From Candidatus Anstonellales archaeon (GTDB lineage: Archaea; Micrarchaeota; Micrarchaeia; Anstonellales; J096), in assembly GCA_038890615.1 (NCBI GenBank), contig JAWAFI010000001.1, positions 342,889-406,888 on the forward strand: a stretch of 64,000 bases of DNA, read 5' to 3'. Position numbers and translations under genes: made by a program. Below, one piece after another: positions 37,206-64,000 of this stretch; within the stretch, counting starts at the first letter, position 1; each line of letters starts with the position of its first letter. Under the pieces are notes generated by a model. The model was not told where the DNA came from, did not search any database, and saw nothing but the letters and a program-made list of their open reading frames with translations.

Positions 37206-37601
37206 ATGGAAGAGCGCATTTACACAATAAGCCTGAGGGAGGCATTCAGCCACAGCAGGGCAAAAAAGGCAGAAAGGGCTGTTAAAGAGATAAAGGAATA
37301 CTTAAAGAAGCACACTAAGAAGGAAAAGGTGTCTATAAGCAATGCAATATCGCAGGCGGTCTATGCAAGGGGCTACAAGAAGTGCCCAAGGAAAGTCAAA
37401 GTAATAGTCAGAATAGAAGAAGATTCTGCAAAGGCCTACCTGTTCGGGGAAGAGCCCAAAAAGGAAGAGCCAAAGAAAGAGAAAAAAGAGGAGAAGCCTG
37501 AAGGCAAGGAAGAGCCCAAAAAGGAAGAGCCAAAGAAAGAGGAGCCCAAGGAAGGGGCAAAAAGCAAGGCAGAAAATAAGCAAGCAAAGAGCTCCACATG
37601 A
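37206..37601 (+). CDS. rpl31e: 50S ribosomal protein L31e with K/E/P-rich C-terminal extension
   Basis: MEERIYTISLREAF...RAKKAERAVKEIKEYLKKH...ISNAISQAVYARGYKKCPRKVKV core, followed by EEPKKEEPKKEKKEEKPEGKEEPKKEEPKKEEPKEG. Confidence 0.9.
   Translation: MEERIYTISLREAFSHSRAKKAERAVKEIKEYLKKHTKKEKVSISNAISQAVYARGYKKCPRKVKVIVRIEEDSAKAYLFGEEPKKEEPKKEKKEEKPEGKEEPKKEEPKKEEPKEGAKSKAENKQAKSST
37448..37541. repeat. 34-bp perfect repeat at 60-bp spacing inside the L31e tail
   Basis: GGAAGAGCCCAAAAAGGAAGAGCCAAAGAAAGAG occurs at 37448-37481 and again at 37508-37541 (coding EEPKKEEPKKE). Confidence 0.9.
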
Positions 37602-41827: not shown

Positions 41828-42165
41828 AGGCACTTGGCAAGCTGATGAACTTGACAAAGGGTTCGCTTATTGCAAAGGAATGCTTCTTGGTTGAAACAAA
41901 TTTTGAGAGGGCAAGGGGTCTTATGTTCAGCCAAAAGAAATGCTTGGTTTTCAAATGCGATGGCTTCCTTCCAGTCCATTCGTTCTTTGTGTTCTTCCCA
42001 ATAACTTTGCTCTACATAAAAAAAAGGAGGGTTGTGGAGAAGCACCTCCTAATGCCTTTTACAGCGCATTACAAGAATAGCCACCCCGCAGAATACATGA
42101 TTGAAGTGCCTGGGGAATGCAACGCAAAAAAGGGCGATAGGGTTGCTTGGGTGGAAGATAGTTGA
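41824..42165 (+). CDS. DUF192-family protein
   Basis: ...RARGLMF... and later AEYMIEVPGE... fit the DUF192 (COG1430) pattern. GTG start overlapping the uppS stop; ATG 41845 is an alternative. Confidence 0.65.
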   Translation: MKALGKLMNLTKGSLIAKECFLVETNFERARGLMFSQKKCLVFKCDGFLPVHSFFVFFPITLLYIKKRRVVEKHLLMPFTAHYKNSHPAEYMIEVPGECNAKKGDRVAWVEDS

Positions 42166-44801: not shown

Positions 44802-44806
44802 GCTTT

Positions 44807-45205: not shown

Positions 45206-45701
45206 TGAGAGGAAGGCAATCCATGTTGCAGCAGGAGCAGGCCTTATGTTCCTTACTTACGTGGCCCAGCCCTACCTTCTCCCTATCCTTTTCGTCCTAT
45301 TCATAGTGTTCCTTTTGGTTATGCACGAGTCAAAGGAAGGGGTTATGAAATTCCTTCTTCCAGGCCTTGCAGCCCCAACTGTAAACTATGTTGCAGGCCT
45401 TTGCATAGCCCTTCCCCTCCTTGAAATGAATGAGTTTAGGGCTGTGCTGGTTGCTCTTGCCCTTAGCGACAGCTTCGCTGCGCTTTTTGGGAAGCACCAC
45501 CCAATCAAGCGGATGAGCAACGGAAAATCGCTTGGAGGGGCTTTTGCATTCTTTGCTACCTGTCTCCTTACTTTTCTCTTCCTTCCATTTCCAACCTTCC
45601 TTATTTTTGCGCTTGCGCTCTCCTTGATAGAGCTGCTTACACCACTCGATGACAACCTAACAATCCCTGTTTCAGGGGCTATACTTCTTTACTTCCTTTA
45701 G
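45192..45701 (+). CDS. CTP-dependent polyprenol (dolichol) kinase-like / CTP_transf_1-family membrane protein, short form
   Basis: DSFAALFGKHHPIKRMSNGKSLGGAFAFF (D..A...G......KS.eG) and ELLTPLDDNLTIP motifs. GAGGTGGA Shine-Dalgarno upstream of ATG 45192. Confidence 0.65.
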   Translation: MIGLNERKAIHVAAGAGLMFLTYVAQPYLLPILFVLFIVFLLVMHESKEGVMKFLLPGLAAPTVNYVAGLCIALPLLEMNEFRAVLVALALSDSFAALFGKHHPIKRMSNGKSLGGAFAFFATCLLTFLFLPFPTFLIFALALSLIELLTPLDDNLTIPVSGAILLYFL

Positions 45702-48257: not shown

Positions 48258-48267
48258 GTGCTTCTAT

Positions 48268-49953
48268 TCACGCTTTTCCTTGCTGGCTTTTTAATTCTTT
48301 TCTAAATTCATTAAGCTGGTTAAAAGCCAGTTGTTGTTGCCACGGATCCCCGAAATTGATGAGAAGAATAAGATTGAAAAGCACTGTTGGGTCTTTCTTC
48401 TTTATTGCCTCCTGGACCTTTTCCTTTATAATTTTTTCATCATTAGTAGTAATGCCAAGCATGGAGGCAGCAACGCTTACCCTTGAATTTACAACTTCCT
48501 TGTACTCGGCAAGCTCTTTGCTGTCTATGAAGTATGACCTCTCCTTAAGCATATTCACTGCTGAAAGATAGCCTACTGCTTTCCTTCCTTCGTCAGTAGT
48601 CGGATCCATCTCTGCAATCTGGTGCATATCTTTGGCGGTTTTTCCAATTACCTTGGGATCCCCATCTATTACATGCGACATTGCTAATGCGTAGCCTACA
48701 ATCTCAGGTGGTGCATTGCTTTTAGCAAGCTTTTCAGCAATAGCCTTTGCCTTGTGCCTCTGGCCGTTTGCCATTGCCTTATGTAAGCTATCAATTTTTT
48801 TGTAAAGGCTCTTGATTCCATCCTGAGTCATTCTGCCATTTTCATCAACTTCAAACTTATATCCTTTCCTTGGGTAGAACACCGTATACCATAATTCTGA
48901 AAGTTGATAGGTTGCGCTCTTCATTGAATTGTACACTGTCCTTGCGAGGTGAATAGGGAGCTTTAATATGAATTCATCGGCAAATGACTTCACATAGTCC
49001 CCATTACTTAAAATTTCTCCTTTGCTCTTTTTCTCTGCTATTCTTTCCTTGTAGGTGCCATATGCGTCAAGCATTGCCATAACCCCTACTATAATCGGAT
49101 CTGCAAAGCTTGCGCCTTGCTTTCCAATAGAAGCAAAACCGAGCCCAAGGGAAGCCCCTCCGCTGCCCCAATAAATAGGCCCGAGTGAAAGAGCAGGATT
49201 CTTTGAAATACTAAGCCCATAAATATCCCTCCTAAACTCAATTGCACTGTTCTTTGTTATTGCAAGACCTGCATAGGTACTACCGCTCTTCTCTGTTTGG
49301 CCTGATATCGAGGCGCTAAGAGAATGCTGTAGTTCTCCTTTGTCATTCACAACTGTTTGCACTCCTACGCCTCCATAAACAGTTTTAGTAGGCGTTAACC
49401 TTAAAATTTTCTTTGCAGCTCTTGAAAATCTAGCCCCTGCATAAAGGTGCTTTTCAGCTCCAGGTCTGTAAAACAGCTGCTCAAGCGCATTATTCATGAA
49501 TTTCTTGGAGCTCATACTATCCCCGGGCTCAAGCACATATCCTTTTTCGGTTTGGGTTATCTTGTCGCCAATCATCTCAGGCCGGAGAACCCCTGTTTCA
49601 ATCAGCACATGAATGCAGATATTCATTGCTCCCTTCCCTGCCTCACCGTTGAAATAGAGCTTTCTTCCATTCTCTATCCTTGTTGCTGCTTCTTCAAGTA
49701 TTTTTATAACTTCTGATATTCTTCCGCCTGTGCTACTGTCTGTGATGGCAATTAACTCTGCGAGGCTTATTTTACTCCTATTCTTGAATGCTTTCTCAAC
49801 TTCTTCCTGCACCTTGTCCAAATTAGTGTAGCCAACCCTGTCTGCGAAAAGCCTTGTTGATTCAATAGCTTGCTCCTTTGTAAGCATTATTTTGCTTGCA
49901 TTTGTCCTGCCTTCAACAACCTTATCAAGATTTTGGATCTGTTTTTCTACCAT
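48268..49953 (-). CDS. Hypothetical protein (561 aa), downstream partner of the giant protein
   Basis: 9 nt downstream of 49963..53829 on the same strand. Helical ends and a central G/S-rich beta-like region (GPIYWGSGGASLGLGFASIGKQGASFADPIIVGVMAML). No signal peptide or known motif. Confidence 0.6.
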   Translation of the reverse strand: MVEKQIQNLDKVVEGRTNASKIMLTKEQAIESTRLFADRVGYTNLDKVQEEVEKAFKNRSKISLAELIAITDSSTGGRISEVIKILEEAATRIENGRKLYFNGEAGKGAMNICIHVLIETGVLRPEMIGDKITQTEKGYVLEPGDSMSSKKFMNNALEQLFYRPGAEKHLYAGARFSRAAKKILRLTPTKTVYGGVGVQTVVNDKGELQHSLSASISGQTEKSGSTYAGLAITKNSAIEFRRDIYGLSISKNPALSLGPIYWGSGGASLGLGFASIGKQGASFADPIIVGVMAMLDAYGTYKERIAEKKSKGEILSNGDYVKSFADEFILKLPIHLARTVYNSMKSATYQLSELWYTVFYPRKGYKFEVDENGRMTQDGIKSLYKKIDSLHKAMANGQRHKAKAIAEKLAKSNAPPEIVGYALAMSHVIDGDPKVIGKTAKDMHQIAEMDPTTDEGRKAVGYLSAVNMLKERSYFIDSKELAEYKEVVNSRVSVAASMLGITTNDEKIIKEKVQEAIKKKDPTVLFNLILLINFGDPWQQQLAFNQLNEFRKELKSQQGKA

Positions 49954-49962
49954 CTAATCACC

Positions 49963-52900
49963 TCAAAATATCCAATACCAGTAGCCTCCAATCCCTATTG
50001 CCCAGCTTTGCCCTACCTTTTCGAACTTTATGTCAAGCACTCCACTGCTGTCAGAGCCTTTTTTCATATCAACTGCCACCCCCATCACGAGCTCCTTTAT
50101 AGGCCCTCCTTCGAAATTCGTCTTGCCCCCTCCAAGATAAAACCTTATGTCAGTAAGCGCAAGCTTTCCTTCATTATTTACCCGCAAGCTGTATATGCCT
50201 CCATGGAAGGTTAGGAGCTCGTCAGTTACATCCTTTGCCTGCGCATTGGCGTCAATGAGGACCATGCCCTGTTTTGTGAACCCAACATACCATTTGAGCC
50301 CATTCTTTGTCCTTACCTCAATCCCTACCTCACCAAGAGTTATTTTTGCGTCCTTGAAATATTCTGCTATCTTTTCAGGGGTTATGCTCTGGGCCATATT
50401 TCCCTCCGTATAGCCCATCACCAGCGTGATATTTCCGCTCTTTATCCCAGCGTAGAGGCTATCCGTGCTAATTACGCCTTCAGAGCCGCTTTCCTTTATC
50501 TTTTTCACTACCACCCCTAGAACTGCGCTTGAGATAGGCACAACAACCTGCGCCTCTTGCACCTCAGTCATTTTTTCTGCTTGTGTGTACTCAAAAAGCC
50601 CCATTGATGCCGCAACACCTCCATCTATCTTTATGAAAGCGTTTACCCCATAATTCCCCTCTTTCCCGTAAAGGGCTGCAAGCTCAAGCTTTCCAAGCCC
50701 CTTCTTGTTCACAGCATAAAGAGCGCCGTAGTAGGTTTGCGATAAAGCAAAGAGCGACAATGCTGATCTGCCTCTCTTCAAGTACCTTTCAATATTGCTC
50801 TTTATTCTGCCAAGCTCTGCGTGAAGCTTTCCCTTGTCTCCTTCTGTAGAATTTATTTCATCCAGCTTTTCCTGGTATCTTTTCAGTTCTTCTCTTATAT
50901 TCACGTTTATGTATGCCAGCTCAAGAAGGGCAAAGCTGAACTCCTGCGCATAATTGTAGTAACTCAACTGGACAGTCTGCTTTGTATTGTTGCCTTTTCC
51001 ATATGTTCCCTGGAGTATGATGCTGTCCATTCCAAGCAGCGTTTCTTTTGCAAATGTGCCAAGTATAAGACCGTCCCATTCCTCCTCACTAAGATGACCT
51101 CCAAAAGTCCCACCCACCCCTGTTCCTTTTCCTGAATATCTCCTAAGGTTGAATATGCTTGCATCAACGGAAATATTGCCTTCTTTCATTCCATAGCTAG
51201 CAACATAGTAGTTGTTCTCTTCCTTGCTTTCCCCTGCGATTCCAAGCCACATGAAATCCTTTTTCCTGTCTCTGCCTACGAAATAGCCAGCCATCAACCC
51301 ATAGTCTAGGCTTTTTTCCCCTCCTTTTATTACAGGTGGCCCGTATACTTCAACATAGCCGTATTTGTTTCCTTCGCTCATGAGCAACCCAACAGCGCTT
51401 GCGTTGTCTGCAGCAGCAGCGAATGCAGCAAAGTTGTTTGTGCTCATGCTCAAAAGGCCGCCAACTAATCTATCTTCGCTTGCCATTATTTTCATTTCAG
51501 CAGAGTTTCCTGACATCGCTATAAGCAATCTGTCAAGGCCCTCTTTAGGTGCGTCGAAATGCACCCTATACCAATAGCCAGTTTCAGTGTCATGGAAGTA
51601 GCCTCTTACACTGTATCCTTTCTCTGTTTTATCAAAGAAAAGCAGTGTGTTTCCCTTAAGCAGGCCTTCTTTGACCATTAGGTCAAGCGCTGTGTGGAGC
51701 TCTTCCTCCTCTTCACCTACAACCGCACTTACTCTGCCGTCAAATGTCCAGTTCTCCCCATTGGATATGTCATTAAGGATAGAGTCCAGCCTATATCTAT
51801 GGAAGTCAGTGGTTATAGTAGTATCTAACCTCCCTATCCCTATAAAGCTCGCTGTTATTGTTCCATACCCTACGTCTCTTTCACCCCTATCATAATACCT
51901 TCCACTCAATACCCCCGTCGTTTCAAGAAACTTCGTTTTATCAAAAAATTTTGGGCGCTCCATCTCTACTATAAATTTGCTTAGCGAAGAAGAGAGAATC
52001 TTGAAAGGAAGGACAGGAACATACCTTTTTGTGCTGAGTATGCTCCTTGTTTCAGCGTCGAAAGGCATTCCGAAATTCGGCCTTTCATAAGGCCCTCGCA
52101 GTTCTTCCACTGCTTGTTCCCCTCTTGTGAGCATAGGGAACAATGCATTTGCTCCAGGATAGAGCGAAAATGCGGAGGGATAGCCTCGTTGGGAAATATA
52201 GAAGTTCCTTACCCACTGCTCAGTAGGACCTAGCAGGCGCATACTTTCATCTCTTATTTGGGCATTAGACCCATACCCATATATGGTGCTTGCTGCTGTG
52301 CTTAACCCCCTGTCTTGATACATTTCATTAATTAGAATTTTCATCATTTCCTGCAGGGAGAACGAAACTACCTCTTTCTTTCTTTCAAAATGCTCCACAA
52401 CCTTGCTCTCAGCTTCCCAAGTGTAGTAGCTTATTATTTTTGACTCAGCCACCGTCACAGCATTAAGCACGTCTATGAAAACCCCCAAGTCCTCAATCTG
52501 GCCTAAAAGGTGGGGGTAAAAAGAGTTTATTAGTTCCAGCTTTGTTGAATCAAGCTTTACTGCCCCGAAGTGTTCGGCGAACAGCCTTAACCACTCAACT
52601 TCATCCATCTTTGAGTCCAGAACATATTCATAACCTTTCTTTTCCTCATTCCATTTGCCCATAACTCCTACATAATTGCTTTCCCTTATAACTGGCACAA
52701 GATTGCTGTAGAACGAGTACTGTTGGAGCAGGTCAAGGTTTTTCAGGAGCGAAACATGCTCTAGCTGCTTCTCCTTGTTTTCCTTGGTGAATGTGCCATA
52801 CTGTGCTGCAAACCCCCCCCTCCACCCTTGGAACCCTTTATCATTTTCTATCTTTTGCAATGCTTTCAGCAATACTTCATAGGCGTCTTTGCCATCCACT

Positions 52901-53829
52901 CCGAACCATTTCTTTAGGCTTTCTTTTGGCCCATATTTTTTCTCAATAAGGTAGTTCACTCCCTCCCTTCCGTTCTTTTTTTCTATTTCTTTTAGAAGCT
53001 GTCTTAAATTAGCTACTGACTGGGCTGCATCAAAAGTTGAGGCATCTGCAGCCATTGCACTACTAAGGTTAGCATATCCTTCATTAAGCTGCATTACCTT
53101 TTGCACAACATCCTCTTCTTCCCCTATAACCTTTGCTAATTTCTCCCTGTTCCTTCTTACAAAATCCTTAAGCCGTGCTGCTCCTTCAAGCTGAGAGGGC
53201 CATTTTCCTTCTTTGATGGCCTCAATCAGCAACTTATTTACATATTTCTTTACCTGTGGATCCTTGCTCATTTCACTGTAGAGCTTTTCTGCAACTAGTC
53301 TTCCTTGTGTATCGACATCCCCCACCCTTCCCAAGAGTGCTAGAGATTGGATGAAATATTTTAGCACCATGCTTTTCTGGCTTTCTGTAAGCTCTTTTGG
53401 GTTGAAATATTGTGTTTCCAATTCACTAGGCTCTTCTTTCTTCTTATCTTCCTTTTTCGTTTTGTCTTCTTTCTCTCTCCTTTCTTCAGGTTTAGGTTCT
53501 ACCTTTTTAGGGACTTCTTCCCCCTTTTTCACTTTCTCCTCTCCTTTTGGTTGTGGTTCCTTCCCTGCCTTCCTCCTACCATAAACGATCTCCTCCATCT
53601 TCTCAACGATATGCTCTACGAGCTGTTTTTTAGTAAAATTTGGATTGTTTAGGTTTTTTATAAGGAATTCATCAATAAACTTATCTATCTTTTCCATCTT
53701 CCTTCTGCTTAGATTAAGGTATTCATTCCTTGGGTTTCTTCTGTTATATTTATCTATTGCCTCTAATCTGATTTCTATCATTTTTTTCCAATCATTGTTT
53801 GATATTTTTTCTTGAGCAGACACTGGCAT
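49963..53829 (-). CDS. Giant hypothetical protein (1288 aa): shared N-terminal module, K/E linker, helical region, beta-rich C-terminal half ending ...GIGGYWYWIF
   Basis: Uninterrupted 3.9-kb ORF. GGTGGA 5 nt upstream of ATG 53829. No signal peptide/TM and no recognisable catalytic motif. Confidence 0.7.
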   Translation of the reverse strand: MPVSAQEKISNNDWKKMIEIRLEAIDKYNRRNPRNEYLNLSRRKMEKIDKFIDEFLIKNLNNPNFTKKQLVEHIVEKMEEIVYGRRKAGKEPQPKGEEKVKKGEEVPKKVEPKPEERREKEDKTKKEDKKKEEPSELETQYFNPKELTESQKSMVLKYFIQSLALLGRVGDVDTQGRLVAEKLYSEMSKDPQVKKYVNKLLIEAIKEGKWPSQLEGAARLKDFVRRNREKLAKVIGEEEDVVQKVMQLNEGYANLSSAMAADASTFDAAQSVANLRQLLKEIEKKNGREGVNYLIEKKYGPKESLKKWFGVDGKDAYEVLLKALQKIENDKGFQGWRGGFAAQYGTFTKENKEKQLEHVSLLKNLDLLQQYSFYSNLVPVIRESNYVGVMGKWNEEKKGYEYVLDSKMDEVEWLRLFAEHFGAVKLDSTKLELINSFYPHLLGQIEDLGVFIDVLNAVTVAESKIISYYTWEAESKVVEHFERKKEVVSFSLQEMMKILINEMYQDRGLSTAASTIYGYGSNAQIRDESMRLLGPTEQWVRNFYISQRGYPSAFSLYPGANALFPMLTRGEQAVEELRGPYERPNFGMPFDAETRSILSTKRYVPVLPFKILSSSLSKFIVEMERPKFFDKTKFLETTGVLSGRYYDRGERDVGYGTITASFIGIGRLDTTITTDFHRYRLDSILNDISNGENWTFDGRVSAVVGEEEEELHTALDLMVKEGLLKGNTLLFFDKTEKGYSVRGYFHDTETGYWYRVHFDAPKEGLDRLLIAMSGNSAEMKIMASEDRLVGGLLSMSTNNFAAFAAAADNASAVGLLMSEGNKYGYVEVYGPPVIKGGEKSLDYGLMAGYFVGRDRKKDFMWLGIAGESKEENNYYVASYGMKEGNISVDASIFNLRRYSGKGTGVGGTFGGHLSEEEWDGLILGTFAKETLLGMDSIILQGTYGKGNNTKQTVQLSYYNYAQEFSFALLELAYINVNIREELKRYQEKLDEINSTEGDKGKLHAELGRIKSNIERYLKRGRSALSLFALSQTYYGALYAVNKKGLGKLELAALYGKEGNYGVNAFIKIDGGVAASMGLFEYTQAEKMTEVQEAQVVVPISSAVLGVVVKKIKESGSEGVISTDSLYAGIKSGNITLVMGYTEGNMAQSITPEKIAEYFKDAKITLGEVGIEVRTKNGLKWYVGFTKQGMVLIDANAQAKDVTDELLTFHGGIYSLRVNNEGKLALTDIRFYLGGGKTNFEGGPIKELVMGVAVDMKKGSDSSGVLDIKFEKVGQSWAIGIGGYWYWIF
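53657..53815. repeat. Direct repeat copy A (159 bp, 1 mismatch to copy B)
   Basis: TTTATAAGGAATTCATCAATAAACTTATC...CAATCATTGTTTGATATTTTTTCTTGA is identical to 57196..57354 except 53702 C versus 57241 T. It codes the N-terminal module of the giant protein. Confidence 0.95.
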
Positions 53830-53860
53830 CTATCCACCTATAAAAATAAGGGCTGGGCAT

Positions 53861-53870
53861 ATATTTAAAC
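53861..53870. promoter_or_regulatory. TATA-like box in the 61-nt divergent region between the giant gene and 53891 ORF
   Basis: ATATTTAAAC is ~25 nt upstream of ATG 53891 (+, leaderless pattern) and ~36 nt upstream of ATG 53829 (-, which additionally has GGTGGA). Confidence 0.4.
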
Positions 53871-53890
53871 CTAATCTTTCTTTCCCTATT

Positions 53891-54652
53891 ATGGAAAAGC
53901 AGGAGAAACTAATTACAGAGCTTATGGCCGCCGAGAGAAAATATCTCGAGCTCCACTTCATTACCCTCTATAAGCTCACAACAGGAGTAGAAGCAGAGCA
54001 AGAGCTGCAGGAAAAGGCAGAGCTTGAGAGAAGGATAGCAGAGCTCCATTCAAAGCTTTCAGGCTTAAAGCTCTTCTTCCCATTCCAAAACAACATAGAG
54101 GCGCTTACTGCAAGGATTTCTGCCCATACAGAGCAGGAGGTTGTAAAGGCGCTGAGGGAGAAGAGCGGGGAGCTCTACGAGCTGATAAAAAGCAGAGGTG
54201 TTTTGATAAGGCAGAACTTTGACAGGCAGGAAGATATTGCCCGTTTGATCTGCTTTGTCAATAGGCTTGGTGGTTCAGAGGAGATAATAAAGATGGTGAA
54301 GGAAGGAAAGTGGGACAGGGAGATGCAGGTAAAGGATGCTGCTGAGCTTGCCAAGCACCTTAACAGGGCAGGCATAACCTGCAAGGCTCAAGGGGATAAG
54401 GTAGTGCCTGGGGAGATGGAAGAGAAGGAGCGCCTTATCCAAGTTGATGAAAGGAAAATTTGGCTTCCAGCGCAGAAGGCAGAAGAGCTTGAGAGGCTCC
54501 TAAAGGAACTCAACGAGGTAAACCTCAAGATACAGCTGAAGAACGCAGAGAGGCAGATAAAGGTGTTCAGCGAGCAGGAGGAGAAAGATTTCACTGAGCT
54601 CCAGATTAAGTATTTAGAGCTGATAAAGAAAAAGAAGGAGATTATAGGTTAG
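53891..54652 (+). CDS. Hypothetical coiled-coil protein (253 aa)
   Basis: E/K/L-rich heptad-like sequence at both ends with a small central globular part; correctly spaced TATA box; no family recognised. Confidence 0.55.
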   Translation: MEKQEKLITELMAAERKYLELHFITLYKLTTGVEAEQELQEKAELERRIAELHSKLSGLKLFFPFQNNIEALTARISAHTEQEVVKALREKSGELYELIKSRGVLIRQNFDRQEDIARLICFVNRLGGSEEIIKMVKEGKWDREMQVKDAAELAKHLNRAGITCKAQGDKVVPGEMEEKERLIQVDERKIWLPAQKAEELERLLKELNEVNLKIQLKNAERQIKVFSEQEEKDFTELQIKYLELIKKKKEIIG

Positions 54653-54654
54653 AG

Positions 54655-56280
54655 TTACTCAAAATCTTCCTTCTCTGACTCAGGAGCCTTTGATGTTGTG
54701 CTTCCCTTTGCACTTATTATATCATCAATCCTAAGCATGAGCCTTGCTGTCTCTGTTGCGCTTGCAATTGCCTGCCTCTTGACTTTAGTTGGTTCAAAAA
54801 TGCCTTTCTTCTTCAGGTCTCCTACTTCCCCTGCCATAACGTCGACGCCATATATATGGCCCTTCTGGTGCATGTTCCTTAGCTTCACGATTGTTTCAAT
54901 TGCATCCATGCCAGCATTCTCTGCAAGCGCCTTCGGCACTGCTTCCAATGCATCTGCAAATGCCTGTATTGCAAGCTGCTCCCTCCCTCCTATCTGCTTT
55001 GCATATTCGTTGATCTTGTTGCTTAGTGCCATCTCTGCTGCGCCTCCGCCTATAACATAAGAGCCCTCTTCAATTGTTGAGATCACAGCTCCCCTTGCAT
55101 CTACAATAGCCCTCTCAACCTCGCTAACAACATGCTCTGTGCCTCCTCTTACGAATATTGTAACGCTCTTTGGGTTCTTGCAGTTTTCTACAAAAACCAT
55201 AGCTTCCCCGCTTATTTTCCTTTCTTCAACAAGGCCTGCATATCCCAAATCACTTTCTTTTAAGTCATCCAAGCTTGTGACTATCTTCGCCCCTGTTGCC
55301 CTTGCAAGCTTCTCCATGTCGCTTTTCTTCACCCTCCTAACTGCAAGGATTTTCTCCTTTGCTAGGAAGTGCTGTGCTGTGTCATCAATGCCTTTCTGCA
55401 CAAAGACCGCAGTAGCCCCGCTCTTCTTTATCTTCTCAACCATGTCTCTAAGCATCTTCTCTTCCTGCTTTAGGAAGCTCTCAAGCTGCTCTGGCCCTGT
55501 GATCTCTATCTTTGCGTCAGTCTCTGTTTTCTCAATCTCAAGGGCTGAATCAATAAGTGCTATCTTGGCATCCTTGACTAGCTTAGGCATCCCAGGATGG
55601 ACCACTTCTTTGTCAATAACAACCCCTTTCACAAGCTTGGTGTCCATTATCTCCCCGCCTGCCTTTTTCTCTATCTTTATAAGCTCAGAGTCAATGCTTT
55701 TCTTGCCATCCTTGTTTTCTACCACTTGGAGCACTGATTCAACGACATAGCCAGCAAGCACCTCTTTTTCTGCAGGGCTGCCTATTCCTTTTGATCCCAT
55801 TGCAACAAGCGCTATCTTTGAAAGCACATCCTTGCCGTCTGCGCCCGTTGAAATCTCCTTAAGGAATTCCTCTGCCTTTGCAGAAGCGAGCTCGTAGCCC
55901 TTTATTATAGTTGTTGGGTGTATTCCTTGCTCTAGCAAGTCCCCTGCCCTCTTAAGCAGATTACCTGCTATTACCACAGAGGTAGTGGTGCCATCTCCTA
56001 CCTCCTTGTCCTGCGTCTTTGCTATCTCTACCATAAGCTTTGCAGCAGGGTGGTCTACATTCATCTCCTCAAGTATCGTTGCTCCATCATTTGTTATCAC
56101 TATGTCCCCCATGTCTGTCACAAGCATCTTGTCCATGCCTTTTGGCCCAAGAGTTGTCTTTATTATGTTCGCTATCGCATAGCCAATGGCTATGTTTATC
56201 CTCATTGCATCCCTGCCTATGACCCTTTGGGAGCCTTCAGGCAATACCATTACCTGCTCTCCAGTTACCTGTTTAGCCAT
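54655..56280 (-). CDS. ths: Thermosome subunit (group II chaperonin)
   Basis: [25 protein letters not shown]..., [30 protein letters not shown] motifs. GGTGAGG Shine-Dalgarno upstream of ATG 56280; the ORF-track GTG at 56289 lies inside that SD. Confidence 0.95.
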
Positions 56281-56375
56281 ATTCCTCACCTCACAAAATA
56301 TACACTAATTTTGCTCAGAGTATTTCTTAAATCTTTAATTTTAGCAAATCTTTATAAATTTTTGCATTAAACTCC

Positions 56376-57572
56376 TTACTTGTTTTGTTTTTCTCTCATC
56401 TTTTCTTCTTCAGCGGCTATTTTCCTCTGTTTCATTAGCAAGTCTATTTCGTAAGGATAAAAAACCTTAGAGATGCCCGACGTCATGAACGTTATAGCGT
56501 CTTCAAGAGGACATTTTGGGTCTTTTATACATGCCTTGGCCAACTCAATAAGCATAAGTTCTTCTGATTCTGTGAGTTGTCCTCTATATTTTTCATTTAT
56601 CTCTTTTATATTGTAAGAAAAAATAACATAGTCTCCTTGTTCTAGCATCCTTTTAAGCTTTTTCCTAAATTCCTCCAATTGATTATTTATTTCCTGAAAA
56701 CCTATATCAGTATTTGCTCCTGCGAGCATTAGATCAACGATCTTTTCAACTGGGCAACCAACCACAATGCAATTATGAAGTTCTTGCCCTAATTCATTAG
56801 CTCTTTTCTCTCCAATCTCTGCTCTTCTCGTTTTATTTATCATCAATAGCATATCTCTATCACTTGGATTAAGATTTTTTTCTTTCATCCCTCTTATTAC
56901 CCTCTCCCTTAAATCCTTTTCTATCCCTATTTTCTCGATGCTTTTTGAGGCTTTTTCCATATTTGGTGGGGCAGGTTTTTTCTCTTGGACATTGCTCTTT
57001 GGTGCTTCTTCTGATGGAAGTTTTGTTGGTGGAGGAGAGGCATTAGTTTTTTCTACCACAGTAGCATTGGCTTTAGTTCTCTGCCCATCAACTGATGTTA
57101 CAGGGCTGTTATAAGTTTTCTTTACTCCAGCAATCTCTTCCATTTTTTTTACTATGCTTTCTACGAGCTGCTCTTTACTTAGCTTGTTTATATTATTTAT
57201 AAGGAATTCATCAATAAACTTATCTATCTTTTCCATCTTCTTTCTGCTTAGATTAAGGTATTCATTCCTTGGGTTTCTTCTGTTATATTTATCTATTGCC
57301 TCTAATCTGATTTCTATCATTTTTTTCCAATCATTGTTTGATATTTTTTCTTGATGTTCTTTCGTCTCTTTTGCCCCACCACGGTTGCTATAGCTAGTGG
57401 TAGCTGATGTTCCGCAAGCAATGCTAAAAGAGAGAAACATGGCTAGAGCTGCTCCTGCTAATTTTTTTAGCAACCATTTCTTTGTTGGTTTCTCTTCTGC
57501 CAACGGCTCTAAACACTTAAACTTTGTTTTATAGGTCTCTTTTCCTTTTTCGGTAATTGTTTTGCTTTTCAT
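56376..57572 (-). CDS. Membrane-anchored/lipoprotein-like hypothetical protein carrying the module shared with the giant protein
   Basis: Basic N-terminus, hydrophobic helix LAGAALAMFLSFSIAC, then EKISNNDWKKMIEIRLEAIDKYNRRNPRNEYLNLSRKKMEKIDKFIDEFLI (repeat copy B), P/S/T/K linker and an unassigned helical C-terminal domain. Confidence 0.6.
   Translation of the reverse strand: MKSKTITEKGKETYKTKFKCLEPLAEEKPTKKWLLKKLAGAALAMFLSFSIACGTSATTSYSNRGGAKETKEHQEKISNNDWKKMIEIRLEAIDKYNRRNPRNEYLNLSRKKMEKIDKFIDEFLINNINKLSKEQLVESIVKKMEEIAGVKKTYNSPVTSVDGQRTKANATVVEKTNASPPPTKLPSEEAPKSNVQEKKPAPPNMEKASKSIEKIGIEKDLRERVIRGMKEKNLNPSDRDMLLMINKTRRAEIGEKRANELGQELHNCIVVGCPVEKIVDLMLAGANTDIGFQEINNQLEEFRKKLKRMLEQGDYVIFSYNIKEINEKYRGQLTESEELMLIELAKACIKDPKCPLEDAITFMTSGISKVFYPYEIDLLMKQRKIAAEEEKMREKQNK
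57196..57354. repeat. Direct repeat copy B (159 bp)
   Basis: See copy A (53657..53815). Offset is 3539 bp in the same orientation. Confidence 0.95.
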
Positions 57573-57585
57573 GAGTGTTATTTTT

Positions 57586-57897
57586 CTAATCTCTCTTTTT
57601 AAATTTTTCTATGCTTACCTTTCCTTTTTCTATATAATGAGGGGTTCCTTTTGGTATTACTATCTCCTCTCCTTTCATGAGCATAATCTCTCTAGTGCCT
57701 ATGTGAACTACGCTGTCCTCAAGTGCTATATAACGTTGGCTTTTTTCATGGATGTGCTCTTTGAATGAGCCCCTCGCACTCCTGTTTTCTCGCTCATTCC
57801 AAGAAAGCGTTATATCCTTTCCCTCCTTCTTGACTATAAAACTTTTCCTCCATTTTTCCCCCTTCTTCTTAAATAAGCCTAAAATCCTCTCTTTCAT
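57586..57897 (-). CDS. Cupin-domain protein
   Basis: HIHEKSQRYIALEDSVVHIG (HxH...E motif 1) and GEEIVIPKGTPHYIE (PxGxxH motif 2). Confidence 0.65.
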   Translation of the reverse strand: MKERILGLFKKKGEKWRKSFIVKKEGKDITLSWNERENRSARGSFKEHIHEKSQRYIALEDSVVHIGTREIMLMKGEEIVIPKGTPHYIEKGKVSIEKFKKRD

Positions 57898-57898
57898 C

Positions 57899-58360
57899 CT
57901 AATCCATCTCCCTTGCTGCCTTGAAGCTCAACTCAAGTATGCCGTTTTTGTACCTCTTCTGCATGCTCTTGAAGTCTATGCCCTTTACTGCTATCCTTTT
58001 CTTTACCTTCTTCCCATCAAACCTTTGCCCTTCTATTACTATCCCTCCTGTGGCTTCCTTCACTTCTATAGTTTTCTCTTCTACTCCAGGCATTTCCATT
58101 ATAACTTTTACCCCTTCCTTGCTAGGGATTATGTCAACAAGGAACCCTTCATCTTCTGGCTTGAAGCCCTCATTGTAAATCGTTTTTGGCTTGCCGTCGC
58201 TGCCTATCCTTATAGTTACTGAATAGCCTTTTGGCATATGCTCCCTGCTCTGCCTCTTGGGTATGCTGAATAAATCATCATCAAACCCGAACATTCTTTT
58301 TATCATCTTTCGCATTATCTCAAACTCGTCTTCAAAGTCGTCTTCCATAAACATCACCAT
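57899..58360 (-). CDS. Small heat-shock protein (Hsp20/alpha-crystallin family)
   Basis: Alpha-crystallin domain: VDIIPSKEGVKVIMEMPGVEEKTIEVK ... KRYKNGILELSFKA. Confidence 0.85.
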   Translation of the reverse strand: MVMFMEDDFEDEFEIMRKMIKRMFGFDDDLFSIPKRQSREHMPKGYSVTIRIGSDGKPKTIYNEGFKPEDEGFLVDIIPSKEGVKVIMEMPGVEEKTIEVKEATGGIVIEGQRFDGKKVKKRIAVKGIDFKSMQKRYKNGILELSFKAAREMD

Positions 58361-58452
58361 CTAATAATACTTAACAACCATTTAATAATCTTGCCCTAAC
58401 CAATGCCAAAATATTTAAAAACAAGCACAATATAGCAGAAAGAGGGGATCTA

Positions 58453-59685
58453 ATGGATACAAAGAAGTTCCTTGCCTTTGCTGGTTTGGCATTAGTAGTT
58501 ACAGCTCTGCTTTACTTTTTCGCCCCAAGGGACAAGGGTATTTACCTTGATGCAATAATAAAGTCAATGGAGCAGGAATCGCTCGCAAGACCTGTTTCTA
58601 TAAGTGGTTATGAGAACAGCACATCAATGGAAAGGGCATACCAGATAAATTATGATGGGGCAAATGCCATGGTGAAGGCAATATACGCTTTCTACACAAA
58701 GAGCTTGTATGTGATGAATGGCACTGAATACGTTTGCCTTTCTTACCAAGGAAGCTACGCTTGCGACAAGCAGACAAGCAATGACCTAAAATCCATCATC
58801 GTTACAAAGGACCAGGCAGAAAGGATAGCAAAAGAAATGAAATTCCTATGGGCAAACAAGGCTCTTTCAATAAAGGGTATTGAAGAAACCTCTGAGTGCA
58901 CAAAAATTGAGTATGTTATTGATTACACCAAGCTCACTACAGCTCAGCTTAGGGAAATCGGGCTGAGCCCAACTGATTCTGTTGTTTACATTGGCTCATT
59001 TAGGCATGTCTTATGCTATTCAAAGGATTACAAGCCTGTATATAGGGAGCTTTACTATGCCTTGAATGGCAACCAGTACTCTTATAAGAGAGGGTATAAG
59101 TTTGAGGAAGGGAGCACAGTTTTCAGCCCTGCTGCTGATGCCCAGAAGTACGCAGAGGTAAAGGCATCAATAAACAACGTGCTTGTCCAGCTTGAAAAAT
59201 GCCTATCCTCCCCAAGCGCAATCCAGTGCATAGAAGGAGTTGCTTACCATGAGGACAATGAGCAGATATGTGGCATCTTAGAGGACCAAGAGCGCTGCAA
59301 GCTTAGGATTTTGGTTGGAAAGGGCAAACCTTCGCTTTGCGAAGGGCTCAGCGCTCTAAAAGACGACTGCTATGGTCAATACGCACTACAGCTTGGCAAC
59401 ACCTCACTGTGCGAAAAAATCTCCTCAGCCCAGAAAAAGCAGGAATGCATATCAATGATCAGCAGCCGCTGCTACTCTGATTCTGATTGCGCCATAGGGG
59501 GTTGCTCAGGCGAGCTATGCGGCCTCAAAGGCGAGGAGATGGTAAGCACCTGCATATACAAGCCAGAGTACGATTGCCTTAAATATAGCTCATGCACATG
59601 CATAAGCGGAAAGTGCCAGTGGAAGCGCACAGGTGAATACTTAGATTGCCTCTCAAGCCTCGGTAAGGCTGAGGCAGAAGGCTAG
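58453..59685 (+). CDS. Membrane-anchored/secreted protein with Cys-rich C-terminal region
   Basis: N-terminal TM FLAFAGLALVVTALLYFFAP. The last ~170 aa contain >20 Cys, ending CYSDSDCAIGGCSGELCGLKGEEMVSTCIYKPEYDCLKYSSCTCISGKCQWK. AGAGGGGA Shine-Dalgarno and an ATATTTAAAAA box lie upstream. Confidence 0.65.
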   Translation: MDTKKFLAFAGLALVVTALLYFFAPRDKGIYLDAIIKSMEQESLARPVSISGYENSTSMERAYQINYDGANAMVKAIYAFYTKSLYVMNGTEYVCLSYQGSYACDKQTSNDLKSIIVTKDQAERIAKEMKFLWANKALSIKGIEETSECTKIEYVIDYTKLTTAQLREIGLSPTDSVVYIGSFRHVLCYSKDYKPVYRELYYALNGNQYSYKRGYKFEEGSTVFSPAADAQKYAEVKASINNVLVQLEKCLSSPSAIQCIEGVAYHEDNEQICGILEDQERCKLRILVGKGKPSLCEGLSALKDDCYGQYALQLGNTSLCEKISSAQKKQECISMISSRCYSDSDCAIGGCSGELCGLKGEEMVSTCIYKPEYDCLKYSSCTCISGKCQWKRTGEYLDCLSSLGKAEAEG

Positions 59686-59742
59686 CTCTCTATCTTTGTG
59701 AAAAGATAGGCAGCAAGGAGCACGCATGCAGCCAAGAAACCC

Positions 59743-60795
59743 TTATATCAGCAAAGGTATGGCATTGAAGGCAAGCCTTGAAAGCTGGACTATGGTATTC
59801 CTGTTTATGGCCTTGCTTACCCTTTCCATCTCCCCATACTTGCTTAGCAGTGTGTCTATCTCAAGGGCTTTTAGCATAACTCCAAAATCATATAGCCTTC
59901 TGTTGTCCATCCTTCTTACCAAAGCCATTATATACCTATGGAGCAGAAGGTCCTTGAGGTAGCTTGCCCTCCACTCCTTCTCATAAGCATCGGAGTTTCT
60001 GGTTTTGCCTGCTATTGCGCCGCAGCTCATTCCTATAATGACCCCCCCTCCTGTTGTCTGCTTTACCTGCCCTGCTGCGTTTCCTGCAAGCAGCACCTGC
60101 CTTCCATTGACCTCCATAGAGGTTATTTCTCTTAGCTGCATTGGGATTACATTCATCCTCTCAACCTTTGCGCTCATGCCTATGCTCCTTGTGAAAAGCG
60201 AAAAGCTGCTTATTGGCTCGCCAAAAGTTCCTATGCCAAATTCTGCTGTCCCATCCCCTTGGGGTATGACCCAGCCAAAAAGCCCAACCCACCTTGAGTC
60301 AATGTAAACCCTCACTATGCTTTCATCAGGCCATCTGCAATAACCTTTTGCAGTCCTTACAAACCTCTTTATGTCAGGAAAGCCAAACCTCCTTGCTACT
60401 GTTGAGAACGCCCCATCAGCCCCTATTATGACATTGCCCCTGAAATGATCAGCCCTTTTCCCCAGATGGAGCTTTGCTCCGTTGTCAACTGCCTTCTGGG
60501 CAAGCGCCTTGTCCCATCCCTTCCTGTCCACCACATAGGCCACTCCCTCCCTTCCCACGAATATTTCCTTGCCTCCAAAGCTTATGATTGCCCCATCTAT
60601 CCTGTTTAGCACATGCTCCTTCCAGTTTATGTACTTGCGGAGCCCTTCCATGCCATCCCTTGATAAAAGCCCTGAGCAGTGGGATGGCTCCCCAACCTCT
60701 TTCTTGATTTCATAAATATCAACCCTTTCCCCTGCTTCCAATCCCTCTATTGCAGCAGTGCATCCTACAGGGCCTGCGCCTATTATTTCTATCAT
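59743..60795 (-). CDS. Geranylgeranyl reductase-family FAD-dependent oxidoreductase
   Basis: MIEIIGAGPVGCTAA dinucleotide-binding motif, GADGAFSTV, LAGNAAGQVKQTTGGGV motifs. Confidence 0.85.
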   Translation of the reverse strand: MIEIIGAGPVGCTAAIEGLEAGERVDIYEIKKEVGEPSHCSGLLSRDGMEGLRKYINWKEHVLNRIDGAIISFGGKEIFVGREGVAYVVDRKGWDKALAQKAVDNGAKLHLGKRADHFRGNVIIGADGAFSTVARRFGFPDIKRFVRTAKGYCRWPDESIVRVYIDSRWVGLFGWVIPQGDGTAEFGIGTFGEPISSFSLFTRSIGMSAKVERMNVIPMQLREITSMEVNGRQVLLAGNAAGQVKQTTGGGVIIGMSCGAIAGKTRNSDAYEKEWRASYLKDLLLHRYIMALVRRMDNRRLYDFGVMLKALEIDTLLSKYGEMERVSKAINRNTIVQLSRLAFNAIPLLI

Positions 60796-61544
60796 TACTC
60801 TACTTCCATCCTTGGGGCAAGGTAATAAACCACTGTTGCCCCTCCTACTTCATACGTAACCTTAAGGGGGCTGTCTGTCTCAAGATAGAGAGTAATAATG
60901 CTGCCTGCGCTGCTCCCTTTCACAATGTCGTCAAGGTAATTTAAGGGGAATGTAGCCCTTACATTCCCTTCTGCCTTCATCTCCAAAACCTCTTCTCCCT
61001 CCTCATATTCGCTTACCATCCTGGAATTCTCACCTGCAACTTCTAGCCTCAATACCCCATCGCTTATCAAGAACCTCAAGTGGGAGCTTATGAGCTTAGC
61101 GTCCTTTATGCTTTCCTTAAGCAGCGAATCATTCATCTTTATGTAATTTTTGTAGCTTATGGGAGGCTCTTTCTGCACTCCCTCCCCTAAATCAAGCAGG
61201 GGCATCCTGAAGGTCCTTTTCCTTTTTCCGCCTACGAATTCCACAACCATCTCATTCTTTTCAAGCGATACCACCAGCTTCTCATCAGGCCTTGCCCTGT
61301 CAAGCACCTTTATAAGCTTCTCTATGTCAACCCCGAAGCTTTCCTTTTTCTCCTTCTTGCTGGCGTCGTACATTGAAAAAGCAGAGGAAGGCATGAAGAA
61401 GGAGACCATTGAAATCTGCGATGGGTCTATTGCCTTCAGCCTCAGCCCTTCAGGGGTTGCCTCGAAAACACCCTCCCCAACGAGGTTTGCTATTGAGGAA
61501 ACGGCATCCCTGAAGCTCTTTGCATTCTCAACACTCATTTTCAT
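60795..61544 (-). CDS. pcn: DNA polymerase sliding clamp (PCNA)
   Basis: 249 aa with a two-domain PCNA layout: ...FRDAVSSIANLVGEGVFEATPEGLRLKAIDPSQISMVSF..., ...YLAPRME C-terminus. Confidence 0.9.
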   Translation of the reverse strand: MKMSVENAKSFRDAVSSIANLVGEGVFEATPEGLRLKAIDPSQISMVSFFMPSSAFSMYDASKKEKKESFGVDIEKLIKVLDRARPDEKLVVSLEKNEMVVEFVGGKRKRTFRMPLLDLGEGVQKEPPISYKNYIKMNDSLLKESIKDAKLISSHLRFLISDGVLRLEVAGENSRMVSEYEEGEEVLEMKAEGNVRATFPLNYLDDIVKGSSAGSIITLYLETDSPLKVTYEVGGATVVYYLAPRMEVE

Positions 61545-61606
61545 GAGTTCACCGCAAATATGAGCAGGGCGCTATTTAAAAAGCTTGCTTTAGGCATTAA
61601 CAAACC

Positions 61607-61616
61607 TTTTTAAAAA
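61607..61616 (+). promoter_or_regulatory. TATA-like box upstream of 61635 ORF (a second box at 61573-61582 faces PCNA)
   Basis: TTTTTAAAAA is centred ~23 nt upstream of ATG 61635. TATTTAAAAA at 61573-61582 lies ~33 nt upstream of the PCNA ATG on the other strand. Confidence 0.4.
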
Positions 61617-61634
61617 GGGTTGCGAACATCACTT

Positions 61635-62144
61635 ATGGGAAAAGGCGAAGAAATTGACGAAACCAAACTTTACGAGATGGCAAAGAAGGCAACAAGCGAA
61701 GGGGCTCTTTTCGCATCGCTCTACTTAGACATACACGGAGCAGATGAGAAGAAGCTTCAGAATGTTGCAGTTGAGCTGGTCAATAGGATGATGAAGGAGC
61801 AAGGGGTGTTGTTCGTTTTCGGAAAGATAGAAGAGCCGATCCTTCAGGAAGGTGTGTATTCTACTCTCGTGGAGGTTAAGGCAATAGTGGCTGACATTAA
61901 TTCCCTCGCAACCCTGACATATGTTTATACCCCTGTTTCAGTTGACCTGATAATGCCGGATGAGGTCAAGCTTACCTCATCGCAAGTCGGCTCCCTTATG
62001 GTCTACATCTCTAACCAGAGCTTTAACTGGAAAAAGATTTACATAGAGAGGATGCGCACAAAAGAGGAGGCAGAGGCATTTGCAAAGGAGGTGCAGGCAA
62101 GGGAGCAGTTGGGAAAGAAGCTTTTGGAAGGTGAGGGCAAATGA
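61635..62144 (+). CDS. Hypothetical protein (169 aa) translationally coupled to the KaiC-like ATPase
   Basis: ATGA stop/start overlap with 62141..62884; no motif recognised. Confidence 0.55.
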   Translation: MGKGEEIDETKLYEMAKKATSEGALFASLYLDIHGADEKKLQNVAVELVNRMMKEQGVLFVFGKIEEPILQEGVYSTLVEVKAIVADINSLATLTYVYTPVSVDLIMPDEVKLTSSQVGSLMVYISNQSFNWKKIYIERMRTKEEAEAFAKEVQAREQLGKKLLEGEGK

Positions 62145-62884
62145 ACAATTTTTCAAAAAGCGGAATAAGAGGGTTTGATGAGCTCCTTGAAGGCAAGGGC
62201 TTCATGAAGGGCTCTTTGATAGCACTGAGCGGCCCAACAGGAGTGGGGAAAAGCACATTTGCAATGCAGTTCCTTGTCAATGGCGCAGTGCTCTACACAG
62301 AGCCAGGCGTGTATATAACCATAGAAGGAGGGAGGGATTCATTGCTCCTGCAAATGAACGCATACAACTGGGAGCTAGATCGCCTTGAGAAAGAGAAGAG
62401 CGTGCTTATCTTGGACTACCCAATAGAGGAGGTTGACCAATTCCTTACAAGGAACAGCGCTGTGAAGGACCTTGTAGAGAGCGTTAGCGCTGAGAGGGTT
62501 GTCATTGACTCTATACTGCCGCTGGCTCTCATGAAGACCACAGAGGAGGAAAGGCAGTCAATGTTCATAAACTTGGCATCTAACATAAAGTCATGGGGCG
62601 CAACAACCATTGTGATTACAGAAGACTCACCAGTTGACAGCACAGTGCCGCAGACGCGCTACCATTTCGAGAACTTCAGCGACACCTGGATATATATGTC
62701 ATACGACAGGCAGGGCAAGGATGTTTCAAGGGAGATAGAGATAGTAAAGGCAAAGGGTGTAAAGCACTACATGGGCAAGAGGCCCATAGAGATAAGCAAG
62801 GAAGGGGTTTCTGTTGCACTGCCTGAATGGGAAGGGGAAAAGAATAAAAAGATATTGCAGGATAAAAAGCTCAGGAGGAAATAA
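62141..62884 (+). CDS. KaiC/RadA-like single-domain RecA-superfamily ATPase
   Basis: GIRGFDELLEGKGFMKGSLIALSGPTGVGKSTFAMQFL (Walker A), VVIDSI (Walker B-like), 247 aa. Confidence 0.85.
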   Translation: MNNFSKSGIRGFDELLEGKGFMKGSLIALSGPTGVGKSTFAMQFLVNGAVLYTEPGVYITIEGGRDSLLLQMNAYNWELDRLEKEKSVLILDYPIEEVDQFLTRNSAVKDLVESVSAERVVIDSILPLALMKTTEEERQSMFINLASNIKSWGATTIVITEDSPVDSTVPQTRYHFENFSDTWIYMSYDRQGKDVSREIEIVKAKGVKHYMGKRPIEISKEGVSVALPEWEGEKNKKILQDKKLRRK

Positions 62885-62885
62885 A

Positions 62886-63404
62886 ATGTATTATCTTTAC
62901 AAAGTAGAAGATACCATAAGGGTTCCGCCAAACAGAGTAGGGAAAGACTTGAAGCAGGCAGTTCTTGATATAGCCAGGGAAGAATATGAAAGGAGAGTGC
63001 TAAAGGACATTGGCTTTGTGCTTGGGGTTTTCTCTCCTGAAATATTAGGCGATGGAAAAGTTATCCACAACGACCCAGGGGTTTACTACTCAGTGAGGTT
63101 TGACCTTTTGGCTTACAAGCCAGAGGTCAACGAGGTTGTATATGGGGTAATAAAGGATGTTGTTGAATTCGGAGCATTCACTATCATTGGGCCATTCGAG
63201 GCATTGCTCCACATATCGCAGATTGGGGCAGAGAAATACACCTACAACAAGAAGGAAGGCATCCTTGTCTCTTCTGGGAAGAAAAACACCATAAAGCCCG
63301 GCGACAAACTCATAGGGAAGATTTCCACAGCAAGCATGAAAGCAGTCTCAGATGTAAAGATAGGGATAACTTTGAGGGCAAATGGGTTGGGGATGATTAG
63401 ATGA
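62886..63404 (+). CDS. rpoE: DNA-directed RNA polymerase subunit E' (Rpo7)
   Basis: MYYLYKVEDTIRVPPNRVG..., S1 domain GVIKDVVEFGAFTIIGPFEALLHISQI. Confidence 0.9.
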   Translation: MYYLYKVEDTIRVPPNRVGKDLKQAVLDIAREEYERRVLKDIGFVLGVFSPEILGDGKVIHNDPGVYYSVRFDLLAYKPEVNEVVYGVIKDVVEFGAFTIIGPFEALLHISQIGAEKYTYNKKEGILVSSGKKNTIKPGDKLIGKISTASMKAVSDVKIGITLRANGLGMIR

Positions 63405-63589
63405 TAGGCTGCAAGCAGTGCCGCTCTGTATGGAACGAAAATAAGATGGAGAGATGCAAGGAGTGCGGGAGCACAGAGTTAAGCGATAAGTTTGGGGTTT
63501 ATTTCATATTGATTGACCCAGAAAAATCAGAGGTGTCAAAGGAATTGAAAATAACTAAGAAAGGAAGGGTAGCATTGCTTTTTGCTTAG
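63401..63589 (+). CDS. spt4: Transcription elongation factor Spt4 / RNA polymerase subunit E''
   Basis: Zinc ribbon CKQC...CKECGS followed by GVYFILIDPEKSEVSKELKITKKGRVAL. ATGA overlap with the Rpo7 stop. Confidence 0.85.
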   Translation: MIGCKQCRSVWNENKMERCKECGSTELSDKFGVYFILIDPEKSEVSKELKITKKGRVALLFA

Positions 63590-63631
63590 GCATATCAGTT
63601 AAGGTTTAAATTACTGAAAGCAAGATTGTAT

Positions 63632-64000
63632 ATGCAAAAAGAGGAGCAAATTAAAGTTTTAAAGAAGGGCAAGGGAAAGCTCCTTAGCCCAGAGGAAGAG
63701 CAGAGATTTAAGGAAACGGTTGTATCAGAATACGAGAGAATTCTCAAGCAAGAAATTTCATCTTGGCCTATTTTTGAAAAAAGGGGATGGAAATCCTTGG
63801 GCAACCTTCGTTTTAGCGTTAGCTTGAAAGAGGACGGCTCTATTGCTGATTTTAGCCTTTATAAGTGCGATGGGGCATTAGAGCATCTGAACAGGGCACA
63901 TATTTTCCAGGACTTGCCGAAAGAGGTTAAATCGATTTTCAATAAAGTTTTCCCTGATTTTGTTGAGCAGCTTAAAAAAGAAGGGGGTGTTGGCACTAGG
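63632..64000 (+). CDS. Hypothetical protein, 3' end outside window (not in the ORF track)
   Basis: ATG 63632 opens a frame that stays open to the window end (MQKEEQIKVLKKGKGKLLSPEEEQRFKETVVSEYERILKQ...). No motif recognised. Confidence 0.4.
   Translation, partial: MQKEEQIKVLKKGKGKLLSPEEEQRFKETVVSEYERILKQEISSWPIFEKRGWKSLGNLRFSVSLKEDGSIADFSLYKCDGALEHLNRAHIFQDLPKEVKSIFNKVFPDFVEQLKKEGGVGTR

Follow-up and report, generated by a model that had tools for sequence, protein, structure and literature searches.

Probable domain-limited gene conversion of a shared three-helix module in two otherwise unrelated genes on either side of a thermosome gene in a Micrarchaeota archaeon

INTRODUCTION

Two otherwise dissimilar genes of a Candidatus Anstonellales archaeon (Micrarchaeota, DPANN), encoding an orphan protein of 1288 amino acids (aa; the large protein) and an orphan of 398 aa (p398), carry a nearly identical segment and lie on either side of a thermosome gene. 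Both are located in the stretch of 64,000 nucleotides (nt) analyzed here, referred to as the window (GCA_038890615.1, JAWAFI010000001.1 positions 342,889-406,888, forward strand). An earlier note on this DNA, made from the letters alone, had described the segment as a direct repeat placing the same N-terminal module on two unrelated proteins, had proposed recent gene conversion or recombination as its origin, and had likened the arrangement to polymorphic effectors or toxins, in which a constant head is joined to variable bodies. The locus thus raises the question of how two genes came to share one segment and nothing else, whether both copies are real, and whether the segment is the head of a toxin-like system.

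RESULTS

A near-identical tract within a longer shared module

Direct comparison of the two core segments (Table 1) gave 159 nt in each and a single mismatch, C at 53702 against T at 57241, exactly as the earlier note had it; the minus-strand codons are AGG (Arg) in the large gene and AAG (Lys) in p398. The copies are in direct orientation, 3.5 kb apart, and their reported reading in frame on the minus strand was borne out, with the core encoding residues near the start of the large protein and residues well inside p398. A repeat search of the window extended the pair to 176 nt with 97% identity (53640-53815 versus 57179-57354), and past a 6-nt indel the similarity resumed for a 45-nt stretch with 73% identity. 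In a self-BLASTN comparison of the whole window the pair (E = 7.7e-80) turned out to be the only sizeable repeat in the 64 kb, the sole other match being a 34-nt low-complexity coding repeat (37448/37508).

The weaker similarity said to follow the tract, QLVE(H/S)IV(E/K)KMEEI, was present as well. The parts of the module that form its third helix in the two proteins were 54% identical at the aa level and 65% at the nt level, with many synonymous differences. Outside the module, no similarity between the large protein and p398 was found (best BLASTP E-value, 1.6), in agreement with the claim that the two bodies are unrelated.

Two age layers in one module

When the two modules were aligned codon by codon, they fell into two parts of very different divergence. 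Over the first 52 aligned codons (the tract), 155 of 156 nt were identical, and the 51 conserved codons held no synonymous difference. Over the next 26 codons (the tail, corresponding to the third helix), only 51 of 78 nt were identical, and 7 of the 14 conserved residues were encoded by different codons. The identity thus fell abruptly, from 99.4% to ~65% at the nt level, while the homology continued. With the 28 mismatches distributed uniformly across all 234 aligned sites, at most one would fall within the first 156 with a probability of 2.5e-12. At its 5' edge, at codon 6 of the large gene, the tract stops where the homology itself stops; its 3' edge falls within the module. It is because this edge is internal that the identity drops from 99% to ~65% where the two proteins can still be aligned.

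Since selection at the protein level cannot erase synonymous differences, an old paralogy followed by a recent homogenization is needed to account for both layers. The likely explanation, judged from the sequences, is ectopic gene conversion, or concerted evolution, within an older shared three-helix module of ~80 aa. The proposal of recent gene conversion or recombination in the earlier note is well supported by the sharp identity step and by the contrast between 0/51 and 7/14 synonymous differences. Under this explanation, two lineage-specific genes would each hold a paralogous ~80-aa three-helix module followed by a disordered linker, p398 having its copy behind a signal or anchor helix. 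A recent homologous recombination without crossover would then have copied ~160-175 nt between the genes, covering helices 1 and 2. The pathway would presumably be the archaeal homologous-recombination machinery, acting here on direct repeats 3.5 kb apart.

Both copies are present in the genome

A repeat of 159-176 nt is near the length of a short read and can confuse assemblers, and selection on the nucleic acid itself might in principle explain a complete lack of synonymous change. Two alternatives to conversion between coding sequences were therefore weighed, namely, that assembly had created the pair and that the repeat is a functional element at the nucleotide level, such as a mobile element or a regulatory RNA. 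An independent check was made in the Logan assembly (k = 31) of the public read set SRR27730023, in which the genome of the window is present (100% identity over 25.7 kb). Three of its contigs, each 100% identical to the window, correspond to positions 38268-53686 (L083), 53786-57225 (L082), and 57325-64000 (L084), and at each of the four junctions between unique and repeated sequence the contig stops precisely 30 nt (k-1) into the repeat. Because these four junctions were recovered independently of the assembler used for the window, and because the two copies differ by one base, the repeat is not an assembly artefact. In a relative represented by a 5-kb Logan contig (L001, see below), the large gene likewise starts beside a divergently transcribed homologue of p253, the 253-aa orphan that lies between the repeats, so that the relative's synteny backs the order of the genes. 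The artefact that the earlier note had named as a possible refutation is thereby countered at all four borders and at the junction of p253 with the large gene. Because the repeats are direct, the assembly graph allows just one other route, which would yield a deletion and a 3.5-kb circle. The presence of both copies in the genome is supported by this contig-level evidence.

As for a nucleotide-level element, the segment showed no terminal inverted repeats, no RNA structure (z = +1.4), and no Rfam match, and it corresponds to homologous coding sequence in the orthologue described below. The artefact and the element, taken together, are scarcely credible as an explanation. A miniature inverted-repeat transposable element or insertion sequence inserted into both genes was rejected as a candidate on the same grounds: there are no inverted repeats, and the orthologue encodes a homologous module at the same position.

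The module belongs to the large-protein family

A word-indexed search of 5.8 billion proteins returned one homologue of the large protein, P0003 (1242 aa), encoded on the 5-kb Logan contig L001 of run SRR20820566 with conserved synteny. The two proteins were 57-59% identical overall and 50-80% identical along the body. P0003 starts with MPGSAQ and has a module at the same position, sharing with the window module MPxSAQ, YNRRxP, and a pattern of K, I, E, and L residues. It was only ~29-31% identical to the window tract at the aa level and 47-48% at the nt level, against 98% and 99%, respectively, for the two tracts within the window genome. Since P0003 holds a diverged homologue of the module in the same place, the module is ancestral in the large-protein family. 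On this comparison it is a native, fast-evolving part of that family and not a mobile add-on.

The earlier note had placed the module at the extreme N-terminus of a giant protein. The placement held, because an in-frame TAG directly precedes the ATG of the large open reading frame (ORF), whose start codon stands behind a GGTGGA motif; at 1288 aa the protein is large rather than giant. Inspection of its sequence revealed no signal peptide, no transmembrane segment, and no hydrophobic segment typical of an anchor. The structure model of its body had a mean predicted local distance difference test (pLDDT) score of 33 and was unusable.

One observation on the other end of this protein may be recorded here. 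The aromatic C-terminus GIGG(Y/N)WYWIF is conserved in the large protein (49963-50000, minus strand) and its orthologue (L001, 4290-4318), and it is preceded by a region rich in Gly and Tyr with a beta-strand-like character. In this it is similar to the final strand of beta-barrel membrane proteins, a likeness that is unexplained in an archaeon without a known outer membrane.

p398 and the age of its module

p398 begins with a basic N-terminus and continues with a hydrophobic helix that terminates in a lipobox-like SIAC (aa ~31-53), a short linker, the module (aa 74-150), a linker (150-214), and a C-terminal domain (214-397). The hydrophobic helix proper spans aa 31-50 and is followed by S-I-A-C53. 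Compared with the lipobox [LVI][ASTVI][GAS]C, positions -2, -1, and +1 fit and position -3 is Ser, for which reason we call the motif merely lipobox-like. With the ATG start the n-region is a basic segment of 30 aa; were translation to begin at the TTG at 57473 instead, p398 would have a signal peptide of canonical short length. In an AlphaFold2 model built without an alignment (mean pLDDT, 53), the module was predicted as three helices (81-99, 104-127, and 133-148; pLDDT, 60-75), residues 150-214 as disordered, and the C-terminal domain as all-alpha with pLDDT up to 86. A Foldseek comparison of this model with the PDB gave nothing below E = 2.6, and the word-indexed protein search with p398 returned p398 alone.

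p398 was the gene with the lowest GC content in the window (0.354, with 0.316 at third codon positions [GC3], against ~0.46 and 0.50 for housekeeping genes). It stands in a same-strand string in which the upstream Hsp20 gene and 103-aa ORF are followed by p398 and the thermosome gene, the gaps between them measuring 1, 13, and 86 nt. p398 may have been inserted recently between heat-shock genes, or it may be co-expressed with them.

These properties bear on a simpler explanation, namely, a single recent partial duplication in which ~240 nt from the 5' end of the large gene entered an unrelated AT-rich gene and gave rise to a chimeric p398. The repeats are direct, in the same orientation, and 3.5 kb apart, as a local duplication would leave them, and p398, with no homologue and an atypical GC content, could be a young chimeric gene. 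One event cannot, however, yield no synonymous difference in one part of the module and 7 of 14 in the part next to it, and the sharp step in identity and the 6-nt indel also speak against it. Moreover, the unconverted tail of p398 matched the orthologue and the large protein of the window genome about equally well (52% and 54% aa identity, respectively); the tails of the large protein and its orthologue were 32% identical. This comparison of tails suggests that the module copy in p398 is old, the sample being too small to interpret. We consider a single duplication improbable and retain gene conversion within an older module.

If conversion did take place, codon usage leans weakly towards p398 as the donor and the large gene as the recipient. 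GC3 was 0.30 in the tract and 0.31 in p398, against 0.46 in the body of the large gene and 0.48 in the 27 codons of that gene that follow the tract. By a log-likelihood ratio of codon usage, only 2.6% of the 53-codon windows of the large gene were as p398-like as the tract.

Carriers of the module and the toxin-like reading

We then determined how widely the module is distributed. A profile combining the large protein (aa 1-1200), P0003, and the module of p398 was run exhaustively with HMMER against 1.84 billion representative proteins. It returned the orthologue, p398 (E = 1.3e-31, in the module region), and P0004 alone. P0004 was rejected as a third carrier, since it turned out to be a spurious match to a translated tandem repeat. 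No third copy was found with a hidden Markov model of the module in six-frame ORFs of the window and 81 loci. The orthologue's module is just ~29% identical, and very distant carriers of such a fast-evolving 80-aa module could escape detection in these searches. Searches for metagenome contigs with the large protein and p253, and for viral contigs with both bodies, gave no matches.

Family libraries were searched with whole proteins, the module alone, and subdomains. The large protein, p398, p253, and p561 (a 561-aa orphan that follows the large gene) gave nothing above the cut-offs in Pfam, NCBIfam, PHROGs, PADLOC, or PDB sequences, and no toxin, immunity, defense, or phage family was matched in the locus. 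The genes downstream of the two bodies are p561 and the thermosome gene; no small immunity-like gene follows either.

These results bear on the suggestion of the earlier note that the module is the constant trafficking or anchoring head of a polymorphic effector or toxin-like system with interchangeable C-terminal bodies. DPANN archaea depend on contact with a host, which makes variable surface proteins plausible, and the same head does stand on two unrelated bodies with a flexible linker after each. It is in the shared N-terminal segment, the unrelated C-termini, and the recombination at the shared segment that the locus resembles polymorphic toxin systems such as Rhs, CdiA, and MafB. In contrast to those systems, it lacks a carrier family, orphan cassettes, and any toxin, immunity, or secretion-associated domain, and its head, only 53-80 aa long, is ancestral to one particular body. 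The profile search found two bodies and no third among the 1.84 billion representatives, and the orthologue keeps the same pairing of head and body. The finding had at first drawn most of its interest from the toxin-like reading; that reading is not supported, and we consider it very improbable.

Predicted deletion between the repeats

The earlier note had also pointed out that recombination between the repeats would remove the genes between them. Its geometry is right: the repeats do bracket the thermosome gene, together with p253, and as they are direct and in frame, a crossover between them would delete both and fuse the leader of p398 to the large protein. The deletion itself is a prediction, and a cell losing the thermosome gene in this way would probably be harmed.

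DISCUSSION

Gene conversion confined to one domain has been documented for neighboring paralogues of both archaea and bacteria (PMC4632066, PMC6053082). In the duplicated mtrA genes of methanogens (PMC4632066) and in a prokaryote-wide survey (PMC6053082), as these papers describe them, paralogous segments are closer to each other within a genome than orthologues are between genomes, and the same holds here. The likeness to the cases described there extends to a tract that covers part of a gene, to sharp borders, and to copies close together on the same replicon. In the present pair, unlike those cases, the two genes share only an 80-aa module, and both are orphans of unknown function; also unlike them, a single conversion event is visible, and recurrent, long-lasting conversion is not shown. 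Seen against this background, the phenomenon is real and mechanistically ordinary, an instance of a known process, and it is modestly interesting rather than a new kind of system.

Recombination that keeps 5' coding segments alike among divergent membrane-associated proteins is also found in lipoprotein families of Mycoplasma and Borrelia, which share near-identical 5' ends including the signal peptide. Here, unlike in those families, only p398 has a signal or anchor helix, and the segment common to both genes lies beyond it.

What the module does can only be suggested tentatively. It might be a protein-protein docking or oligomerization domain common to the membrane-anchored p398 and a large partner, in which case conversion would keep the docking domain matched between the two. 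Dockerin/cohesin pairs, or short helical dimerization domains, offer a functional analogy only, in that a small domain on a flexible linker could join two proteins; the module matches none of them in sequence or fold. A more specific version has, in our estimate, an outside chance of being correct. In it the module would associate with itself, p398 would hold the signal-less large protein at the envelope, and repeated conversion would keep the interface identical within a genome as it evolves fast between species. Were this true, concerted evolution would preserve a fast-evolving homotypic interface, one that is ~29% identical to that of the orthologue.

Several points weigh against the reconstruction given above. 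No orthologue of p398 is known, so its copy of the module cannot be dated. Formally, selection at the nucleotide level could still be the cause of the zero synonymous change. The lean towards p398 as the donor comes from 53 codons, a weak basis, and the tract also falls in the low tail of the distribution of codon scores of p398 itself. Finally, the large protein has no export signal and the module of p398 is predicted to lie outside the membrane, so that the two modules may not share a compartment.

If gene conversion within the module is nonetheless the right explanation, the locus would offer a clean and datable case in which two genes of a reduced DPANN genome, with nothing else in common, have undergone domain-limited conversion. 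Homologous recombination in such genomes would then act on stretches of ~170 nt, and two proteins could be kept matched in an N-terminal domain that evolves fast. The neighborhood itself is lineage specific: its proteins of 1288, 561, 253, and 398 aa have no homologue outside one relative and would be candidates for roles in the envelope or in interaction with a host.

Gene neighborhood and other features of the window

Table 1. Features of the locus (window coordinates)
Feature	Position	Strand	Remarks
p561, 561-aa orphan	48268..49953	-	10 nt downstream of large gene
Large protein, 1288-aa orphan	49963..53829	-	MPVSA, module, K/E/P-rich linker (~aa 86-140), large body ending GIGGYWYWIF
Diverged module part, large protein	53575..53655	-	aa 59-85; third helix
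Repeat copy 1, near-identical core	53657..53815	-	aa 6-58 of large protein; module helices 1-2
p253, 253-aa orphan	53891..54652	+	Between repeats; divergent from large gene
Thermosome (group II chaperonin)	54655..56289	-	Between repeats; Pfam Cpn60_TCP1, E = 3e-183
p398, 398-aa orphan	56376..57572	-	Basic N-terminus, hydrophobic helix, linker, module, disordered linker, all-alpha C-domain
Diverged module part, p398	57114..57194	-	aa 127-153; third helix
Repeat copy 2, near-identical core	57196..57354	-	aa 74-126 of p398
Predicted signal/anchor helix of p398	57414..57482	-	Cys at position 53

Public gene calls start the thermosome gene at 56280. Its nearest relatives among 185,579 species genomes were found in metagenome-assembled genomes of Micrarchaeota, with up to 73% identity; taken with an intron-containing tRNA gene (see below), these matches assign the window to a DPANN archaeon of that phylum. 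Relatives of the large protein, p398, p253, and p561 were absent from all 80 thermosome-related loci. A query with the large protein against the contigs of the species genomes gave no match, and cluster look-ups for the thermosome neighborhood of the relative and for an orthologue of p398 gave singleton clusters only.

The arrangement in the relative is syntenic, with p561 45% identical and p253 80% identical. Compared with 57% and 45% for its neighbors, the conservation of p253 indicates a much stronger constraint on this protein. No homologue of p253 was found in Pfam, NCBIfam, or the PDB, and the word-indexed homologue search with p561 returned only p561 itself.

The gene for alanyl-tRNA synthetase (alaS) comes after p561. 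A few kb from the large gene and alaS (42101-44801, plus strand) lie the gene of a secretion or pilus ATPase of the T2SSE family (PF00437, in the Logan gene table of L083) and, after it, a 457-aa ORF that matches no family; the two are possibly an assembly pair of a type IV pilus-like or archaellum-like kind. On the other side of the locus, 58453-59685 (plus strand) encodes a 410-aa protein whose N-terminus forms an anchor helix and whose C-terminus holds an eight-cysteine-cluster domain (TIGR04289, 64 bits; CGP-CTERM family TIGR04292, E = 4e-21).

Further features were noted elsewhere in the window. The low-complexity repeat detected by self-BLASTN is part of a 60-nt tandem repeat of 2.1 copies (37448-37573, plus strand) that includes a 34-nt exact repeat and encodes a stretch of the EEPKKEEPKK type within ORF 37206..37601. 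A CTCCTCTTC-type tandem repeat at 34945-35045, with periods of 9, 21, and 30 and ~3-7 copies, adjoins a tRNA-Arg gene (34840-34915); on the minus strand it probably encodes an acidic tail of low complexity. A 115-nt Rfam tRNA match at 1033-1147 (plus strand; 57.6 bits), which ARAGORN did not report, is probably an intron-containing archaeal tRNA.

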